A stretch of DNA of 64,000 nt, taken from positions 152-64,151 of the forward strand of contig JAJDOE010000014.1 of NCBI GenBank assembly GCA_022340345.1, read 5' to 3'. Shown piece after piece: positions 43,623 to 50,511 of this stretch; position 1 is the first letter of the stretch, and each line of letters starts with the position of its first letter. The notes under the pieces were generated by a model. The model saw nothing but the letters and a program-made list of their open reading frames with translations. It did not search any database and had not been told where the DNA came from. The stretch is from Gammaproteobacteria bacterium. Its GTDB lineage: Bacteria; Pseudomonadota; Gammaproteobacteria; HyVt-429. A program made the translations under genes and the position numbers.

Positions 43623-45143
43623 GACCGGGAAATGATTTCGCACGTGAAAAAAGTCTACCTGGAAACATTTGGCTGCCAGATGAACGTGCTCGACAGCGAG
43701 CTGGTGCTGGGCGCGCTGGAGGGTCGCGGGTACCAGCGTACCGGCCAGCGGGACGAAGCGGATGTGGTGTTGTTCAACACCTGCTCGGTGCGCGCGAACG
43801 CCGAGCACAAAGTCTACGGTCGCCTGGGCGAGCTAAGCCATCTCAAGCGCAAGCATCCGGAGGTCGTGGTGGGCGTACTGGGTTGCATGGCCGAACGCGA
43901 AGGCGCAGACCTGCTGCAGCGTTTCCCGCAGGTGGACCTGCTGGTAGGACCCGGCGAACTCGACCGTGTTCCGGACCTCATTGCTGCATCGCGCGACGGC
44001 AATTCGGGACCGCAGCAAGCGCTTGCCGGTGACCGTGCCCGACGCAGCAGCACCCTGGATGCAGCGGGGGACAACCTGGAACGCCTCGACCTGTCCCGCT
44101 CCATGGATGCGGTGCAACGCCACGGTTCGGCATATGTTCGTATTACCCGCGGCTGTAACAAGTTCTGCAGCTACTGCGTGGTGCCCCGCACCCGCGGTGC
44201 GGAAATCCACCGGCCCCCGGATCACATTGTGGACGAGTGCCGCCGTCTGGTGGATGCGGGGGTAGTGGAAATCACGCTGCTGGGCCAGACCGTCAATCAC
44301 TACCGATTCGATCATGGAGCCAGCATTGTGGTCGCAGGCGTGGTCCAGCCCCAGGTGGGCCCCGGCGGCGGAGCCTTTACCCGCGCGGACAGCAGCTTCA
44401 ACGTCGGGCGCAAACTCACACGTTTCAGCGATCTGCTCGCCCGCATCCACGAGGAAATACCCCAACTCCAGCGGCTGCGTTTCGTCACCAGCTTTCCGAG
44501 GGATTTCGGGGACGACATCCTCCAGGTCATGGCGGACAGCGAACGCATTTGCAACTACCTGCACCTGCCGGTGCAAAGCGGATCGGATCGGGTGCTCCGG
44601 CGAATGAACCGGGGCTACAGCGTCAGCGAGTACCGGGAACTGGTGGCGCGGGCGCGCGCTCTGGTGCCGGGAGTGACCATTGCCAGTGATTTCATTGTCG
44701 GATTCCCGGGCGAGGACGAATCGGACTTCCAGCAAAGCATGGACCTGGTGCGGGCCTGCGGCTTCAAGAACAGTTACGTCTTCAAATATTCGGAACGTCC
44801 CGATACGCCCGCCGCCGGCCGCCTTGCGGACGACGTTCCGGAAGAAGTAAAGAAATCGCGCAACCACCGGTTACTTGCGGTGCAGGCCGAAGTCTCCACC
44901 GCGGTGCACCGCCAGCACCTGGACCGCACGGTGCCGGTACTCGTAGAGGGGGTCAGCCCCCGGGGAAATCCCGAAGCCACCCGCACACAGCTATCCGGTC
45001 GCACGGTTGGCGACCTGATCGTGCTTTTCGAGGGATCCACGGACCTGGTCGGGCACATCGTTCCGGTGGCCATCCACGAAGCACGCCAGCTTGCCCTGCA
45101 CGGTGCGGTAGCGGCGCCGGCCGAGGGCCCGGGCACCCCGTGA
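43623..45143 (+). CDS. MiaB-family radical-SAM methylthiotransferase (tRNA/ribosomal MTTase; subfamily unassigned)
   Basis: N-terminal MTTase domain (VYLETFGCQMNVLDSE…LFNTCSVR); radical SAM CNKFCSYC; C-terminal TRAM. Carries a Gly/Pro-rich insertion (VVAGVVQPQVGPGGGAFTRADSS) inside the rSAM core. Starts 10 nt after metG. Confidence 0.8.
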   Translation, partial: DREMISHVKKVYLETFGCQMNVLDSELVLGALEGRGYQRTGQRDEADVVLFNTCSVRANAEHKVYGRLGELSHLKRKHPEVVVGVLGCMAEREGADLLQRFPQVDLLVGPGELDRVPDLIAASRDGNSGPQQALAGDRARRSSTLDAAGDNLERLDLSRSMDAVQRHGSAYVRITRGCNKFCSYCVVPRTRGAEIHRPPDHIVDECRRLVDAGVVEITLLGQTVNHYRFDHGASIVVAGVVQPQVGPGGGAFTRADSSFNVGRKLTRFSDLLARIHEEIPQLQRLRFVTSFPRDFGDDILQVMADSERICNYLHLPVQSGSDRVLRRMNRGYSVSEYRELVARARALVPGVTIASDFIVGFPGEDESDFQQSMDLVRACGFKNSYVFKYSERPDTPAAGRLADDVPEEVKKSRNHRLLAVQAEVSTAVHRQHLDRTVPVLVEGVSPRGNPEATRTQLSGRTVGDLIVLFEGSTDLVGHIVPVAIHEARQLALHGAVAAPAEGPGTP

Positions 45144-45775
45144 GCCCGAAAAAACGCCGCGAATTTTTTGCAAGACTGCGCGCGGAAGAACCGCAACCCG
45201 CAACCGAACTTCACTACGATTCGCCATTCCAGTTGCTGGTGGCGGTGATGCTCTCGGCGCAGGCCACCGACCGCAGTGTCAACGCCGCCACTGAAAAACT
45301 CTTTGCGGAGGCCGCCACGCCCCAGGCCATTCTGGACCTGGGGCTGGCGCGCCTGAAGAAACACATCCAGACCATCGGCTTGTTCAACACCAAGGCCGAC
45401 AACCTGCGCAAGACCTGCCGGCTGCTCATCGAGCGACACGCCGGCCAGGTACCCCGCACCCGGGAGGAGCTCGAGGCCCTGCCGGGCGTCGGCCGCAAGA
45501 CCGCCAACGTGGTGCTCAACACCGCCTTTGGCGAGCCCACCATCGCGGTGGATACCCACATTTTTCGTGTCGCCAACCGCACCGGACTGGCCCCCGGCAA
45601 GACCGTGCGCCAGGTGGAGGACGCGCTGCTGAAGGCCGTACCGCCCGAGTTTTTGCACAACGCCCATCACTGGCTGATCCTTCACGGCCGCTACACCTGC
45701 CTCGCCCGCAAGCCGCGTTGCGGCGCCTGCGTGGTTTTTGACTTGTGTGCGTATCCCGATAAAGTTGAGCCATGA
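45140..45775 (+). CDS. nth: Endonuclease III (DNA glycosylase/AP lyase)
   Basis: GTG start overlapping the MTTase stop. HhH-GPD (LPGVGRKTANVVL) and a 4Fe-4S cluster (CLARKPRCGACVVFDLC). Confidence 0.93.
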   Translation: MSPKKRREFFARLRAEEPQPATELHYDSPFQLLVAVMLSAQATDRSVNAATEKLFAEAATPQAILDLGLARLKKHIQTIGLFNTKADNLRKTCRLLIERHAGQVPRTREELEALPGVGRKTANVVLNTAFGEPTIAVDTHIFRVANRTGLAPGKTVRQVEDALLKAVPPEFLHNAHHWLILHGRYTCLARKPRCGACVVFDLCAYPDKVEP

Positions 45776-46863
45776 ACGTGGCTGCCACTGGGCTGAGTTT
45801 CGGCCTGCATGCCGAGCGCGATCACGCCGAGCGCGCGGTATCGCAGGCTATGGAGCGAAGTGGGCTGGAACGGGCCAATGCGGTCATCCTGTTTCTTAGC
45901 GGCGAATATGCCGCCAATCCCACCCCGGCGGTGCGTGCCGCCGCCCGGGCCGCGGGCTGCACCCAGGTAGTGGGCTGCACCGGCAGCGGTCTGCTCACCG
46001 ACCAGGAATGGGTGCTGGACAGCCCCGGTGCCGCCGCCATGGTACTCGGCGGCGGGGCGCGCCTGCAGCCGGGTCTGCCGGATGAAGGCGGCTCGGTGCT
46101 CAGCCTTTGTACACCGTATGGCATCGATGCGGAGTGGCTGGCGGCGCCGGTGGCGCGTATCGGCGCGGTATCCACCGACCTGCTGGGCCAGGGCCCTTTC
46201 GCCGTGTGGGGCGGGGGCCGGGTCTCCGACCATGGGCGCACCGAGGCCCGCTTTACCGGCGTACGCGACGTGCTGCGCACCGCCCAGGGCATCCGCGCCC
46301 TGACCGCTCCCATCGAGGTGGCCGCGGTGGAAGGCTTCGAATTGCTGCGGCTGGGAAACTACCCGGCCCTCAATGTGCTGGTACAGTCCCTGCCGCGGGG
46401 TGTCCAGGAACTGGAGCGGGTACCGTTTCACTTGCTCATCAGCGGTGTGACCTTTGGCGATCCGGATACCGCCATCCGGGATGGCCGCTTTCGCCTCAAT
46501 CACATCATGGCGGCGGACCCGGAAAACCGCTCCATCACGCTGGCCCAGGCCCTCAATCCCGGGGAGCGCCTGTTTTGGGCAATTCGCGATGCCCTCAGCG
46601 CCGAACAGGCCTTTCGCACAACGGCGGAACAGGCCCACGAGGCCCTGCAGGCGGATCCGGATTTCGCCCTGCTGTTTCCCTGCGTGGCCCGCGGGCCATC
46701 GTTTTTCGGAAACCGGGACCGGGACATCGAGGTCATGCGCCAGATTTTCCCGGGGCTGCCATTCATCGGCTTTTACGGCAACGGAGAAATTGGCCCGCTC
46801 AACGGGGAGAATCACCTGCACCAGTACAGCACCGTGCTCGGCTTGTACCACGCGCTGCAGTAA
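45772..46863 (+). CDS. FIST sensor-domain protein (FIST_N + FIST_C, stand-alone)
   Basis: 363 aa with no output domain; sequence consistent with the FIST N/C architecture (…AVILFLSGEY…VVGCTGSGLL…FPCVARGPSFFG…IGFYGNGEIGP). ATGA overlap with the nth stop. Confidence 0.7.
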   Translation: MNVAATGLSFGLHAERDHAERAVSQAMERSGLERANAVILFLSGEYAANPTPAVRAAARAAGCTQVVGCTGSGLLTDQEWVLDSPGAAAMVLGGGARLQPGLPDEGGSVLSLCTPYGIDAEWLAAPVARIGAVSTDLLGQGPFAVWGGGRVSDHGRTEARFTGVRDVLRTAQGIRALTAPIEVAAVEGFELLRLGNYPALNVLVQSLPRGVQELERVPFHLLISGVTFGDPDTAIRDGRFRLNHIMAADPENRSITLAQALNPGERLFWAIRDALSAEQAFRTTAEQAHEALQADPDFALLFPCVARGPSFFGNRDRDIEVMRQIFPGLPFIGFYGNGEIGPLNGENHLHQYSTVLGLYHALQ

Positions 46864-46905
46864 ACGAGCACCGAAACTTTTGCCCATCCGGGCAGTCACT
46901 AAGGC

Positions 46906-46925
46906 ATTGGTACGTAGCGCCGTAC
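46906..46925. promoter_or_regulatory. Palindrome TGGTACG-N6-CGTACCA 40 bp upstream of bufA (candidate operator)
   Basis: Perfect 7-bp arms in the 102-bp FIST–bufA intergenic region; a GGAG RBS lies 10 nt before the bufA ATG. Confidence 0.3.
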
Positions 46926-46965
46926 CACATGCCCCCAACAAACCAAAACAACGGAGACACCTCAG

Positions 46966-47229
46966 ATGAAGAACGCGAACAAACTGATCGGAACGGCTAT
47001 CGCCGGCGTACTGGCCCTGGGCGGCACGAGCGCCATGACCACCGCTACCGCCGCGGCACCGGAAATTCAGAAGTGCTACGGCGTGGCCAAGGCCGGCAAG
47101 AATGACTGCCAGACTGTCAACTCCGCATGCGCAGGCACCTCCAAGACCGACGGCCAGAAAGACGCCTGGATCTACGTCCCCAAGGGCACTTGCGAAAAGC
47201 TCGCCGGCGGCTCTACCTCCAGCAGCTGA
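46966..47229 (+). CDS. bufA: DUF2282-family precursor peptide (BufA1-like bufferin RiPP precursor)
   Basis: 87 aa with signal peptide MKNANKLIGTAIAGVLALGGTSAMTTATAAA. Core CYGVAKAGKNDCQTVNSACAGTSKTDGQKDAWIYVPKGTCEKLAGG has 4 conserved Cys. Confidence 0.85.
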   Translation: MKNANKLIGTAIAGVLALGGTSAMTTATAAAPEIQKCYGVAKAGKNDCQTVNSACAGTSKTDGQKDAWIYVPKGTCEKLAGGSTSSS

Positions 47230-47230
47230 T

Positions 47231-48103
47231 TTGCCCGATTCGGACACAACGTCCGCCCGGACTGCAGACCCGATCCCCGCGCGTGCGGGGATCGGGCTGC
47301 GGGCCGACCACTATGAAGATTTGCTCAGCCAGCTCCCGCCGCTGGCCTTTCTCGAAGTTCACAGCGAGAATTATTTCGGCGGCGGCCGGCCCCTCGATTT
47401 CCTGGAACGCCTGGCGGAGCACTATCCGATCAGTTTCCATGGCGTGGGCCTGTCACTGGGGTCCTGCGACCCGTTGAGTACTGCGCACCTGCAACAGATC
47501 GCTGATCTGGATGCACGCTTCCAGCCCGTTTTCCTGTCCGAGCACCTTTCCTTCAGCAGCGCCGGTGGGGTGTTCACCCACGACCTCGTGCCACTGCCCT
47601 ATACCGAGGAGGCAGTTGCCCATTTCGCGTCCCGCATCGCCCAGGTCCAGGACCACCTGGGACGACGAATCCTGGTAGAAAATGTCTCCTGCTACCTGGA
47701 ATACGCCCATTCGAGCCTCAGCGAAGCGGATTTCGTCGCCGCGGTGGCGGAACAGGCCGACTGCGAAATCCTGCTGGACGTCAACAACATCTTCGTCAAC
47801 GCCAGCAACCATGGTCACCGGGCGGAGGATTTTCTGGAATCCATCGTCCCCGAGCGCGTCGCCGAAATTCACCTGGCGGGATTCACGCGCAACCGTTTCA
47901 CCGATGGAGAAATCCTCATCGACACCCACAACCAGCGGGTGGCCCCGGCGGTATGGGAACTGTATGCCAGGACCGTCCGGCGTCTCGGGCCCCGGGCCAC
48001 GCTAATCGAATGGGATACAGACCTTCCGCCCCTGTCGGTACTGCTCGACGAGGCCGAATTGGCGAATCGCATCCAGGACGAAGCCCGTGCTCTCGTTGCC
48101 TGA
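47231..48103 (+). CDS. bufB: MNIO (DUF692, MbnB-like) multinuclear non-heme iron oxidase, BufB-like
   Basis: GIGLRADHYEDL…FLEVHSENYF…ISFHGVGLSLGS…LSEHLSF…LVENVSCYLE…LLDVNNIFVNASNHG…EIHLAGF are DUF692 motifs. The start is inferred as TTG 47231 directly after the bufA stop (290 aa); the alternative ATG 47102 overlaps bufA by 128 nt. Confidence 0.85.
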   Translation: MPDSDTTSARTADPIPARAGIGLRADHYEDLLSQLPPLAFLEVHSENYFGGGRPLDFLERLAEHYPISFHGVGLSLGSCDPLSTAHLQQIADLDARFQPVFLSEHLSFSSAGGVFTHDLVPLPYTEEAVAHFASRIAQVQDHLGRRILVENVSCYLEYAHSSLSEADFVAAVAEQADCEILLDVNNIFVNASNHGHRAEDFLESIVPERVAEIHLAGFTRNRFTDGEILIDTHNQRVAPAVWELYARTVRRLGPRATLIEWDTDLPPLSVLLDEAELANRIQDEARALVA

Positions 48104-48863
48104 ACTGCAGAAACAACTCACCGAAACCCTCTACGGCGGCGAACCGCCGGAGGAACTGCTGCGGCGGGTACTGGCTAACGGCCTGGACCCGGCGCGTCGT
48201 TTGCAGGTCTACCGCAACAACACCTTCAGCAACCTGACCGGCGCGCTGCGCGCGGTCTACCCGGTCATCGACCGCCTGGTCGGCGAGGCGTTCTTCGACG
48301 AGGCAGCACGACAGTACATCCCGAAGCAACCCTCCCTCAGCGGCAACCTCCACGATTTTGGCGCCACCTTCGCCGCTTTTCTCGGCGACTATGCGCACGC
48401 GCAAAGCCTGCCGTACCTGGCGGATGTGGCGCGCCTGGAATGGGCCTACCACCGGGCCTTCCATGCGGTGGATCATGCGCCCCTGGATCTGCAGGCGCTT
48501 TCGCAGGTATCCCGCGACAAACTGGACCGGCTGGTTTTCTTCCTGCATCCGTCGGCTACCCTGATCCACTCCCGCTGGCCGATCATCACCATCTGGCAGG
48601 CCAACCGGGACGAAACCGGGAACGAGCCGGGGGAGATCAGCCTGGATAGCGGCGCCTGCATGGCGCTGGTCATCCGCCGCGGTATGGACGTTTTTTTCGA
48701 GTCGCCACCGGGGCCGGAATTCACACTGCTGCAAAAGATCGCCGCAGGAGAGAACCTGGGGGCCGCTACCAGGGCGGCGCTGGCTGCCGGAGCAATTGAC
48801 CTGGAAGACGTATTGCAACGCCATGTCACGTGTAAGACAGTGACCTCGTTCACGGTCCTGTAA
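48087..48863 (+). CDS. bufC: DUF2063 partner protein (BufC-like, RRE-type)
   Basis: GTG start overlapping the bufB end by 17 nt; LPELQKQLTETLYGGEPPEELLRRVLANGLDPARRLQVYRNN is a typical DUF2063 N-terminus. Confidence 0.85.
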   Translation: MLSLPELQKQLTETLYGGEPPEELLRRVLANGLDPARRLQVYRNNTFSNLTGALRAVYPVIDRLVGEAFFDEAARQYIPKQPSLSGNLHDFGATFAAFLGDYAHAQSLPYLADVARLEWAYHRAFHAVDHAPLDLQALSQVSRDKLDRLVFFLHPSATLIHSRWPIITIWQANRDETGNEPGEISLDSGACMALVIRRGMDVFFESPPGPEFTLLQKIAAGENLGAATRAALAAGAIDLEDVLQRHVTCKTVTSFTVL

Positions 48864-48902
48864 TAGCGGCCATTTGCAACACCAACGGGAGCAACCCGCA
48901 CT

Positions 48903-49379
48903 ATGAAAAAACTGCTGAGTACCGCCTGTGGCATTGCCAAAGTTGTTACGCCTCGCCTGGACCAACTCGCTCCGGTGGCCGACCTGCTGATCCGGGTGAT
49001 GGCCGCCAAATTTTTCTGGGATTCGGCGCTCACCAAGCTGACGCTGAATTGGGAATTGCCCTTCATTCACATGAACCCCAGCACGCTGATTCTGTTCCAG
49101 TACGAATACCAGGTGCCCCTGTTGCCATCGAGCGTTGCCGCCTACATGGGTTCCGGGGTGGAACTGATTTTTCCGGTGTTGCTGGCCATCGGCCTTGCCG
49201 GGCGACTCAGCGCCTTCGTGCTGTTCGGTTTCAACATCGTGGCGGTTCTCTCCTACCCGGGGCTGAACGCGGCCGGCCAATTCCAGCACCTGCTGTACGG
49301 AGTGATGCTGTTATTGCCACTGTTCCGCGGTCCCGGCCTGATCTCGGTGGATCACCTTCTCAAACAGCGTTGCAACTGA
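48903..49379 (+). CDS. doxX: DoxX family membrane protein
   Basis: …LLIRVMAAKFFWDSALTKL… has 4 TM helices (PF07681-like); fourth gene of a BUF1-type operon. Confidence 0.8.
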   Translation: MKKLLSTACGIAKVVTPRLDQLAPVADLLIRVMAAKFFWDSALTKLTLNWELPFIHMNPSTLILFQYEYQVPLLPSSVAAYMGSGVELIFPVLLAIGLAGRLSAFVLFGFNIVAVLSYPGLNAAGQFQHLLYGVMLLLPLFRGPGLISVDHLLKQRCN

Positions 49380-49396
49380 AGCACCCCGACCCGAAA

Positions 49397-50359
49397 ATGA
49401 GCGGTCCCGCCCCGTCCTTCGCGGCAACCTTGCGTGCCAACGGCCTGCCACCGCTGGTGCGCGCGCCGCTGCAAACGCTGCAGATCAACGTGGGACGGCG
49501 CTGCAACCAGGCCTGCCATCACTGCCACGTGGACGCGGGACCGAAACGCCCCGAGGTAATGACGGCGGAAGTCGCGCGACGGGTGGTGGACTGGGCGCTG
49601 GCGGCAGCGGTCACCGAAGTCGACATCACCGGCGGCGCCCCGGAACTCAACCCGGAATTTCGCTGGATGGTGGACACCTTGCGCACGGCCGGCGTGCAGG
49701 TAATTTCCCGCTGCAATCTCACGGTGCTGTTCGAGCCCGGCCAGCAGGACCTGGCGGAATGGTACGCCGGGCGCGAGGTACGGCTGGTCTGCTCGCTGCC
49801 CTGTTATACCCGGGACAATACCGACGCCCAGCGGGGTGACGGTGTATTCGATAAGAGTATTGCCGCGCTGCAACTGCTGAACCAGCACGGCTATGGTGCG
49901 CAACGGCAACTGGACCTGGTCTACAACCCGGGCGGGGCATTTTTGCCGCCGGACCAGCAGGCACTGGAGCGGGAGTACCGGGAACGGCTGCTGGCGGATT
50001 TCGGAGTTCGCTTCTCACGCCTGCTGGCGCTGGCCAACCTGCCGATCAACCGTTTTGCCCACTTCCTGGAACGCAGCGGCCAGCGGGAAAGCTATCAGCT
50101 CCTGCTGCAGGAAAGTTTCAATGTCGCCACCGTGGACGGCCTGATGTGCCGGCAGCTGCTAAGCGTGGACTGGCTGGGCCAGGTGTTCGACTGCGATTTC
50201 AACCAGATGCTCGACCTGCCGCTGGGGGGAACCCGCCGCTACCTGTGGGACCTGGACCCGGCGACCCTGCCGGGTAAGCCGGTGGCGGTGGATGCGCACT
50301 GCTTCGGCTGCACCGCGGGAGCGGGGTCGAGCTGCGGTGGCTCATTGGTGGCATCCTGA
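49397..50359 (+). CDS. ArsS-family radical SAM / Cys-rich (DUF3641-like) protein
   Basis: LQINVGRRCNQACHHCHVDAGPKR (CX3CX2C); C-terminal HCFGCTAGAGSSCGGS Cys cluster (Cys, not Sec). Resembles the arsenosugar rSAM ArsS / TIGR04167 family. Begins 17 nt after doxX. Confidence 0.8.
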   Translation: MSGPAPSFAATLRANGLPPLVRAPLQTLQINVGRRCNQACHHCHVDAGPKRPEVMTAEVARRVVDWALAAAVTEVDITGGAPELNPEFRWMVDTLRTAGVQVISRCNLTVLFEPGQQDLAEWYAGREVRLVCSLPCYTRDNTDAQRGDGVFDKSIAALQLLNQHGYGAQRQLDLVYNPGGAFLPPDQQALEREYRERLLADFGVRFSRLLALANLPINRFAHFLERSGQRESYQLLLQESFNVATVDGLMCRQLLSVDWLGQVFDCDFNQMLDLPLGGTRRYLWDLDPATLPGKPVAVDAHCFGCTAGAGSSCGGSLVAS

Positions 50360-50472
50360 CGAGTACCACGAGTCAGGATTCCGATTCCTCGCATGATTGC
50401 GCCTCAGCGCAATCATGGCGATGCAAAAGCAATTCCAACTATCGCCATGATCGCGCCGCAGACGCAATCATG
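50353..50472. repeat. Cluster of overlapping REP-like palindromes (core CATGATYGCGC…GCGCAATCATG) between convergent rSAM and dnaJ
   Basis: ATCCTGAC-11 nt-GTCAGGAT over the rSAM stop; perfect CATGATTGCGCctcaGCGCAATCATG (50392-50417); ATCATGGCGAT-18 nt-ATCGCCATGAT (50412-50451); degenerate copy CATGATCGCGC-7 nt-GCAATCATG (50446-50472). Confidence 0.7.
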
Positions 50473-50511
50473 CGAAGGCAAGGACACCCGGCCCATCAAA
50501 TGGCCCGGGCA

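Follow-up and report, generated by a model that had tools for sequence, protein, structure and literature searches.

An ArsS-family radical SAM gene behind a bufferin operon in a gammaproteobacterial lineage

Bufferins are recently recognised and very widespread bacterial metal-stress peptides, and outside Caulobacter little of their regulons has been mapped. In a 64-kb stretch of a contig from a gammaproteobacterial metagenome-assembled genome (JAJDOE010000014.1; hereafter the window, to which all our negative results for ars and sigma genes refer), a bufferin operon, bufABCD, is directly followed by a gene for an ArsS-family enzyme of the radical S-adenosylmethionine (SAM) type, which we call rSAM in the following. 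This raises the question of why the two are found together. A sequence-only reading of the locus had suggested that rSAM acts as a second maturase, which modifies the bufferin precursor BufA once more. We favour a different answer, to which we assign a probability of about 0.62: the locus would combine two separable modules in one unit driven by an extracytoplasmic function (ECF) sigma factor, namely a canonical bufferin operon and an independent rSAM for metal(loid) stress, rather than a second maturase. In the following, we describe the genes, their arrangement in related genomes and their common promoter, and weigh this answer against the alternatives.

A bufferin operon with a fifth gene

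The five genes lie on the plus strand. The first, bufA (46966-47229; PF10048/DUF2282, 84 bits), encodes a precursor of the BufA1 type with a Sec signal peptide, recognizable as a hydrophobic N-terminus ending in AxA, and with four cysteines (C37, C48, C55 and C76) that are invariant in an alignment of 10 sequences. After a gap of 1 nt, it is followed by bufB (47231-48103), the gene of a maturase of the MNIO type (an oxidative enzyme dependent on multinuclear non-heme iron), which scores 357 bits against the MNIO_BufB model NF050167 (cut-off 310) and only 252 bits against the HvfB model (cut-off 360). This spacing holds for the TTG start codon at 47231, which is backed by a database protein of 290 residues with 100% identity (P0121). 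The gene of the DUF2063 partner protein, bufC (48087-48863; PF09836, 84 bits), whose sequence was read directly, overlaps bufB by 17 nt; doxX (bufD; 48903-49379; PF07681, 45 bits) follows after 39 nt and rSAM (49397-50359) after a further 17 nt.

A list of open reading frames (ORFs) and inspection of the sequence itself reproduced the ORFs, coordinates, strand and individual spacings of the sequence-only reading, and profile searches returned all six of its family assignments, including that of a FIST protein encoded upstream. Only its summary that all gaps and overlaps measure 17 nt or less clashes with its own figure of 39 nt between bufC and doxX. Likewise, family profiles and gene order bear out the proposed BUF1 architecture, with a DUF2282 precursor, a BufB-type MNIO next to it, and then DUF2063 and DoxX proteins. 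In such a module, BufB and BufC would turn the cysteines of the Sec-exported BufA into thiooxazoles to yield a periplasmic copper-binding peptide, while DoxX (BufD) would serve as an accessory protein.

A core of these four genes, arranged in this order, is known from buf1ABCD of Caulobacter vibrioides (Leprevost et al. 2024, PMC11626156; survey PMC12452194). In both systems, the precursor carries a Sec signal peptide and has four cysteines conserved, and both have an ECF-type promoter, in the window a predicted one. The window differs from Caulobacter in its fifth co-directional gene, the ArsS-family rSAM, and in the absence of a nearby sigF/nrsF pair; its operon instead has nth-FIST on one side and dnaJ on the other. 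A radical SAM/DUF3641 neighbour is not mentioned in the papers on bufferins and MNIOs that we searched, nor do the supplements of the MNIO survey mention DUF3641, Radical_SAM or FIST. This survey, the largest, admitted unrelated genes to a biosynthetic gene cluster only at an intergenic gap of <=10 bp (PMC12452194) and would therefore exclude the rSAM of the window with its gap of 17 nt. As the sequence-only reading had supposed for the gene combination, the joining of buf and arsS appears to be undescribed, and so do the lineage-wide promoter motif and the further co-locations of buf and arsS genes reported below.

One slot and one promoter motif

Our comparison is based on 160 loci from genomes and metagenomes that encode relatives of rSAM and were searched with the proteins of the window. 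In the rSAM tree, the window protein belongs to a clade with 98% bootstrap support, whose members stem from Acidiferrobacterales, Sulfuricaulis, 'Muproteobacteria' and Arenicellales. In all cases with available upstream sequence, the rSAM genes of this clade occupy one and the same slot, downstream of nth-FIST and/or a DUF1841 gene; upstream markers were not seen in three short loci (L007, L085, L032). The slot lies in a region of core housekeeping genes (metG ... nth ... dnaJ-dnaK-grpE) that is syntenic across the relatives, and nth is found upstream of it in most loci of the clade.

The contents of the slot vary. Besides the window, six loci carry the complete bufABCD-rSAM arrangement (L162, L163, L165, L009, L010, L034). 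In a further six, it is reduced to doxX-rSAM (L002, L003, L004, L006, L083, L013), and in seven to rSAM alone, with no DoxX (L001, L081, L082, L084, L008, L011, L012). Thus, 13 loci of the clade have rSAM in the slot without bufABC, and without any MNIO operon or precursor there. The synteny of the window recurs in L162, which encodes the BufB homologue P0140 and reads metG-rnfB-nth-FIST-bufABCD-rSAM, followed by dnaJ and dnaK, whereas the fullest form of the slot is seen in L165 (rnfABCDGE-nth-FIST-DUF1841-bufABCD-rSAM). In the BufB tree, the rSAM-linked proteins form one subclade, and the gene order that this predicts was checked on two of its members: it was confirmed in full in L163 (nth-FIST-bufABCD-rSAM), and L164 is compatible with it, showing FIST-bufABC before the contig ends. 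Three look-ups that started from FIST returned three different slot contents (L165, L166 and L167). Since bufABCD-rSAM recurs in six other loci of the same clade, the chance adjacency that the sequence-only reading had named as a counter-case can be dismissed: the association is inherited and old, and not the coincidence of one genome, yet it is not obligatory. Accordingly, rSAM-free bufABCD operons also exist, in L161 and on the contig of P0126, and their BufB proteins (61% identical) are as close to that of the window as P0140 is.

In two loci, an MNIO operon of another type fills the slot. L005 (3409-8954) has an operon of the HvfA type ('oxazolin', with EGKCG repeats) with an HvfX-type DoxX, which also holds a glutamate-synthase-like FMN protein and is followed by the orthologous rSAM; L166 (8158-11942) reads nth-FIST-hvfA-like-MNIO-HvfC-DoxX-rSAM. 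A known operon of this type is HvfABC(X) of Haemophilus influenzae (NF050188, NF003818, NF050144), a stress- and ECF-regulated copper-binding thiooxazole peptide system (PMC12668002), from which the window differs in that its precursor is of the BufA1 and not of the EGKCG-repeat type.

Many of these arrangements share a promoter motif. When the spacers that precede bufA were aligned, a conserved motif emerged, GAAACTT-N15-GTC(T/A)nA, which in the window spans 46873-46900 on the plus strand (-35 GAAACTT at 46873-46879, -10 GTCACT at 46895-46900). It is located in the 102-nt spacer between FIST and bufA, ten bases past the FIST stop codon, and predicts a transcription start at ~46906. The window contains only this one match, compared with 0.02 expected by chance, and the background of the strict pattern across the fetched loci is 0.024 per kb-strand. 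A -35 element that contains AAC and a short -10 element are typical of ECF sigma promoters, and we take the motif to resemble the RpoE/AlgU-type consensus. ECF control has been described for bufferin and related operons (PMC11626156, PMC3511200, PMC12668002); the window motif (GAAACTT-N15-GTCnnA) nevertheless differs from the sigmaF site of Caulobacter, GTAACC-N16-CGAA (PMC3511200).

The motif heads the slot in the window and in 16 related loci, in the short spacer before whichever gene comes first: bufA in seven (the window, L162, L163, L165, L009, L010, L034), hvfA in two (L005, L166), doxX in four (L002, L003, L004, L006) and rSAM itself in four (L001, L081, L082, L084). Because one conserved promoter heads whatever fills the slot, rSAM included, the enzyme appears to belong to a stress-controlled unit. 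From the distribution of the motif, we would regard it as a stable member of an ECF-type transcription unit, whose promoter was kept even after the peptide genes had been lost. Within the unit, wherever doxX is of the BufD type, the gap between it and rSAM measures -1 to 84 nt, and no terminator fits into the 17 nt of the window. A separate promoter or terminator for rSAM was not found; the gene is co-conserved with the operon, and the promoter lies upstream of bufA. With its short gap and a single ECF-type promoter, rSAM is thus very probably co-transcribed with bufABCD, in line with the co-operonic arrangement that had been proposed from the sequence.

Between 45000 and 50700, a scan for sigma-70 promoters returned 1 promoter-like site, with 0.9 expected, terminator-like matches within genes remained at background level, and no Rfam family was found; a hairpin in the bufA leader was not significant (z = -1.6). 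As for the sigma factor itself, L167 (8725-9574) lacks rSAM and has an ECF sigma/anti-sigma pair in the slot behind nth-FIST-DUF1841, while the convergent DUF2064 and family 2 glycosyltransferase (GT2) genes are kept. This sigma factor could be the cognate factor for the motif; no match to the motif was seen upstream of its own gene. Searches of the window with it and with E. coli RpoE did not find a sigma gene.

Could this conservation be neutral? The rSAM gene might simply hitch-hike behind a conserved slot, in a region that rearranges slowly, and receive read-through from the bufferin promoter without any adaptive meaning. The housekeeping character and the synteny of the region are in keeping with this, as is the variety of slot contents, which range from Buf1 and Hvf operons over doxX only to nothing or, in L167, a sigma/anti-sigma pair. 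However, a neutral promoter should decay, yet the motif is intact directly before doxX-rSAM or a lone rSAM in 8 loci after the loss of buf genes. Furthermore, buf operons and arsM/rSAM arrays were joined independently in two other loci, L126 and L088 (see below). Hitch-hiking is therefore rather unlikely in our view.

The trees also offer clues to the order of events. Within the rSAM clade, several deep branches have the bufABCD-rSAM arrangement, namely those of the window with L162, of L165 and of the Arenicellales trio. The doxX gene of the window is orthologous to those of both the bufABCD-rSAM loci and the loci with doxX-rSAM only. In the DoxX tree, the orphan proteins encoded beside rSAM are found, at two separate places, among the BufD proteins from bufABCD-rSAM loci, while the DoxX of the rSAM-free L161 falls outside this group. 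Since the orphan doxX genes thus derive from BufD in two separate lineages, two deletions of bufABC are the most economical reading of the tree. An independent insertion of bufABC into an older doxX-rSAM pair was considered and rejected, given this nesting and the single subclade of rSAM-linked BufB proteins. By the same economy, the ancestor of the clade would have had the order nth-FIST-DUF1841-[promoter]-bufABCD-rSAM, followed by repeated loss of bufABC, then loss of doxX, and replacement by Hvf-type operons; with internal nodes of the rSAM tree at ~50% bootstrap, the order and number of these losses are not firmly resolved. The two modules would accordingly have shared one promoter ever since the clade's gammaproteobacterial ancestor.

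The repeated survival of doxX next to rSAM suggests yet another possibility, namely that these two form the functional pair and bufABC is a dispensable add-on; DoxX could, for instance, link the quinone or thiol pool to the reduction of the rSAM cluster or to substrate handling. The pair outlasted both deletions of bufABC (in L002, L003, L004, L006 and L083, and in L013), with gaps of -1 to 53 nt and the ECF promoter directly upstream. In L005, a second copy of the motif stands directly before hvfX and rSAM, DoxX is also part of the L126 array, and in Caulobacter it is dispensable for bufferin modification and function (PMC11626156). On the other hand, the seven clade loci with rSAM alone do without DoxX, a DoxX gene lies within reach of only 1 of ~140 rSAM loci outside the clade, and the adjacency is trivial inasmuch as doxX is the last gene of the upstream operon. 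We consider such a pair unlikely.

The radical SAM enzyme and its presumed substrate

The rSAM protein has 320 residues, starts with ATG and scores 418 bits against TIGR04167, well above the equivalog cut-off of 300; it also matches PF12345 (DUF3641, 174 bits) and PF04055. All ten cysteines conserved in the family are kept, i.e. the CX3CX2C motif at positions 36, 40 and 43, and C106, C136, C251, C266, C302, C305 and C313 in the more C-terminal part. In an alignment of three groups of homologues, 90 of the 320 columns are >=90% conserved with the same residue in all three, and the clade departs from arsM-linked homologues at no more than four positions: at residues 122, 123, 132 and 215 (window 49760-50041), W, Y, C and L replace F, L, A and M in the nth-linked clade. 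In Cyanobacteria, Binatia, Planctomycetota, Nitrospirales and others, homologues encoded next to arsM are 52-57% identical to the window protein. Judged by these features, rSAM is an ordinary member of a strongly conserved family. An exact-sequence look-up of the protein (P0001) returned no record.

The usual neighbours of this family are an ArsM-like methyltransferase, TIGR04282 (DUF2064) and TIGR04283 (GT2) transferases, an MTAP-like phosphorylase and a MerA-like/DedA protein. They were identified by clustering in the first 80 loci, and their distribution was then confirmed in all 160 by tblastn. Close relatives of the window protein keep part of this setting: in the Acidiferrobacterales-like members of the clade, TIGR04282 and TIGR04283 transferases are encoded convergently, just downstream of rSAM, and an association with arsM, TIGR04282 or TIGR04283 was observed in L001-L006, L084, L085 and L166. 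For a characterised ArsS, the reaction is known to be the transfer of a 5'-deoxyadenosyl group to dimethylarsenite, DMAs(III), with 5'-deoxy-5'-dimethylarsinoyl-adenosine (DDMAA) as the product (PMC13598754). By analogy, the rSAM of the window most likely acts on a small molecule, via 5'-deoxyadenosyl transfer to a trivalent metalloid. It would be found next to a bufferin operon for the reason that both serve the same metal(loid)- or envelope-stress regulon, and not as an enzyme that tailors BufA.

The window enzyme differs from ArsS in three respects: its four substitutions, its place in an ECF-type unit behind an operon for a peptide that is ribosomally synthesized and then modified post-translationally (RiPP), and the lack of any ars gene found in the 64 kb. 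The sequence-only reading had already remarked on the last of these points, and our searches agree. Homologues of ArsM, TIGR04282 and TIGR04283 were not detected in the window by tblastn, and among its 30 other gene-sized ORFs, a Pfam scan assigned none to an ars family, 22 to housekeeping families and eight to no family (~15 smaller ORFs were left out of this count). Hence, no arsM, transferase, phosphorylase or other ars gene was found to accompany rSAM in this stretch. Either the lineage of the window lost the TIGR04282/TIGR04283 transferases, or they are encoded elsewhere in the genome.

If rSAM were instead a tailoring enzyme of thiooxazole metallophores, it would introduce a second, distinct modification into BufA (or HvfA) in the cytoplasm, prior to export. 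The tight, co-directional and conserved adjacency to MNIO RiPP operons, in seven Buf1 and two Hvf loci, would fit this idea, as would the promoter that rSAM and these operons have in common; moreover, RiPP maturases are found among its structural neighbours (SuiB, SkfB, EpeE and PqqE), and BufC could provide a domain for peptide recognition. The idea is weakened by four lines of evidence. First, a RiPP maturase should co-occur with its precursor, but rSAM persists, and is still found under the promoter, in the 13 loci without an MNIO operon in the slot. Second, the close BufB homologues of L161 and the P0126 contig are encoded in bufABCD operons without rSAM, and the published survey reports additional conserved genes in no more than 'extremely low proportions' (PMC12452194). 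Third, BufA offers no additional site: no residue is conserved only in rSAM-linked precursors, whose cores share their conserved columns with that of the rSAM-free L161. Fourth, the enzyme retains the features of its arsM-, TIGR04282- and TIGR04283-linked family, including >50% identity to arsM-linked orthologues in other phyla, and a Pfam search found neither a RiPP recognition element nor a SPASM domain in it, with only ~35 residues preceding the CX3CX2C motif. A precedent for a radical SAM maturase tied to thiooxazole peptides does exist in SbtM, a thio(seleno)oxazole maturase (TIGR04082), but rSAM is not a member of this group, as it reaches only 21 bits against the model (cut-off 350) and has a different C-terminal domain (DUF3641). 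A second maturation of BufA, as put forward by the sequence-only reading, is hence improbable, and on present evidence the locus does not reveal a new RiPP modification.

The structure of the enzyme is of limited help in this question. A search of PDB sequences found no solved structure of the ArsS family. An AlphaFold (AF2) model of rSAM has a pLDDT of 86.6, and its Foldseek neighbours are SPASM/twitch enzymes with TM scores of ~0.5, some of which act on small molecules (BlsE, DesII, BtrN, MoaA, viperin) and others on peptides (SuiB, SkfB, EpeE, anSME, PqqE).

Several observations weigh against two independent modules and deserve to be considered together. The modelled SPASM/twitch-like fold would be compatible with peptide chemistry, and substrate classes are not separable by such a fold. 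The substitutions W122, Y123, C132 and L215 could be the mark of a changed substrate or a shifted pocket. The presumed small-molecule pathway is incomplete within the 64 kb, where arsM and the TIGR04282/TIGR04283 transferases are lacking. Finally, rSAM stayed directly behind MNIO operons of two types, Buf1 and Hvf, and the narrow range of doxX-rSAM gaps was maintained; this adjacency and spacing could reflect a real functional partnership. In that case, the ArsS-family enzyme might assist thiooxazole metallophores together with DoxX, by acting on the modified peptide or on the captured metal(loid), for example through adenosylation or alkylation of a thiophilic metalloid bound to the peptide. 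We give this partnership only a small chance; if true, it would mean that radical SAM enzymes carry out a new, RiPP-linked chemistry and that the role of bufferins extends beyond copper.

What makes the locus and its relatives interesting is that, throughout a whole gammaproteobacterial lineage, an ArsS-family enzyme has remained under the ECF-type promoter that also serves bufferin- and oxazolin-type operons. Three leads follow: some TIGR04167 enzymes may take part in an ECF-controlled response to metal(loid) stress, in which arsM is possibly not involved; DoxX may work with a protein other than BufABC; and searches with the promoter motif could uncover the remaining members of the regulon as well as its cognate sigma factor.

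Co-located modules and the flanks of the unit

Outside the clade, buf and arsM/arsS modules have met independently in at least two other lineages. In L126 (1-10345), they form one tight co-directional array of bufA-bufB-bufC-merT-merP-x-doxX, a MIP channel, DedA, a MerA-like reductase, rSAM, arsM, an MTAP-like phosphorylase, a TIGR04283-like GT2 transferase and DUF2064, which looks like a composite metal(loid)-defence operon. In L088 (459-7957), an ECF sigma/NrsF pair heads a co-directional MerA-like-arsM-rSAM array and has, on its other side, a buf-type MNIO operon that is transcribed divergently; NrsF and its sigma factor represent the regulator family described for the bufferins of Caulobacter. 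In L066 and L156, a pair of an ECF sigma factor and a zf-HC2 anti-sigma factor flanks rSAM and is divergent from it. The recurring theme appears to be the co-regulation of defences against thiophilic metal(loid)s.

Upstream of the unit, nth (45140-45775, plus strand), the gene of endonuclease III (TIGR01083, 271 bits, cut-off 212), is the anchor of the slot and lies outside the stress unit. It is coupled to the gene of the stand-alone FIST protein (45772-46863, plus strand; PF10442, 66 bits; PF08495, 31 bits): the two overlap by 4 nt (ATGA) if FIST starts at ATG, while the NCBI model of 361 residues places a GTG start two codons later, at 45778, and leaves a 2-nt gap after nth. The FIST protein had been regarded as a sensor or regulator of the bufferin operon, which our results speak against. 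It consists of FIST_N and FIST_C domains only, with no output domain, and the promoter motif is found downstream of its gene, as it is of the DUF1841 gene in relatives. FIST also occurs irrespective of buf: the nth-FIST pair is kept with and without buf or rSAM, FIST occurs without buf in L001-L004, L008, L011, L012 and L167 (the last also without rSAM) and is missing from three buf-rSAM loci (L009, L010, L034). By gene order, FIST and DUF1841 belong with nth, and FIST does not appear to be a bufferin-specific regulator. Homologues of FIST are few, with only 552 database proteins at E<=1e-20, and a PDB sequence search returned FBXO22 as its only, distant match.

Further upstream, in the interval between metG and nth (43644-45143), the window encodes the methylthiotransferase MiaB (TIGR01574, 437 bits), where relatives have rnfB or the full rnfABCDGE; rnf genes precede nth-FIST in L165, as does an rnfB-like gene in L162 and L166. 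On the other side, a 152-nt spacer separates the 3' end of rSAM from dnaJ, dnaK and grpE, which are convergent on the minus strand. This spacer is packed with nested inverted repeats (I1-I3, 50389-50475, no strand assigned), and the segment 50355-50515 is predicted to fold with -78.8 kcal/mol (z = -8.6), so that the repeats are probably a bidirectional terminator that closes the unit. They are 16 nt long, built on CATGATTGCGC/GCGCAATCATG, resemble repetitive extragenic palindromic elements and are found nowhere else in the window.

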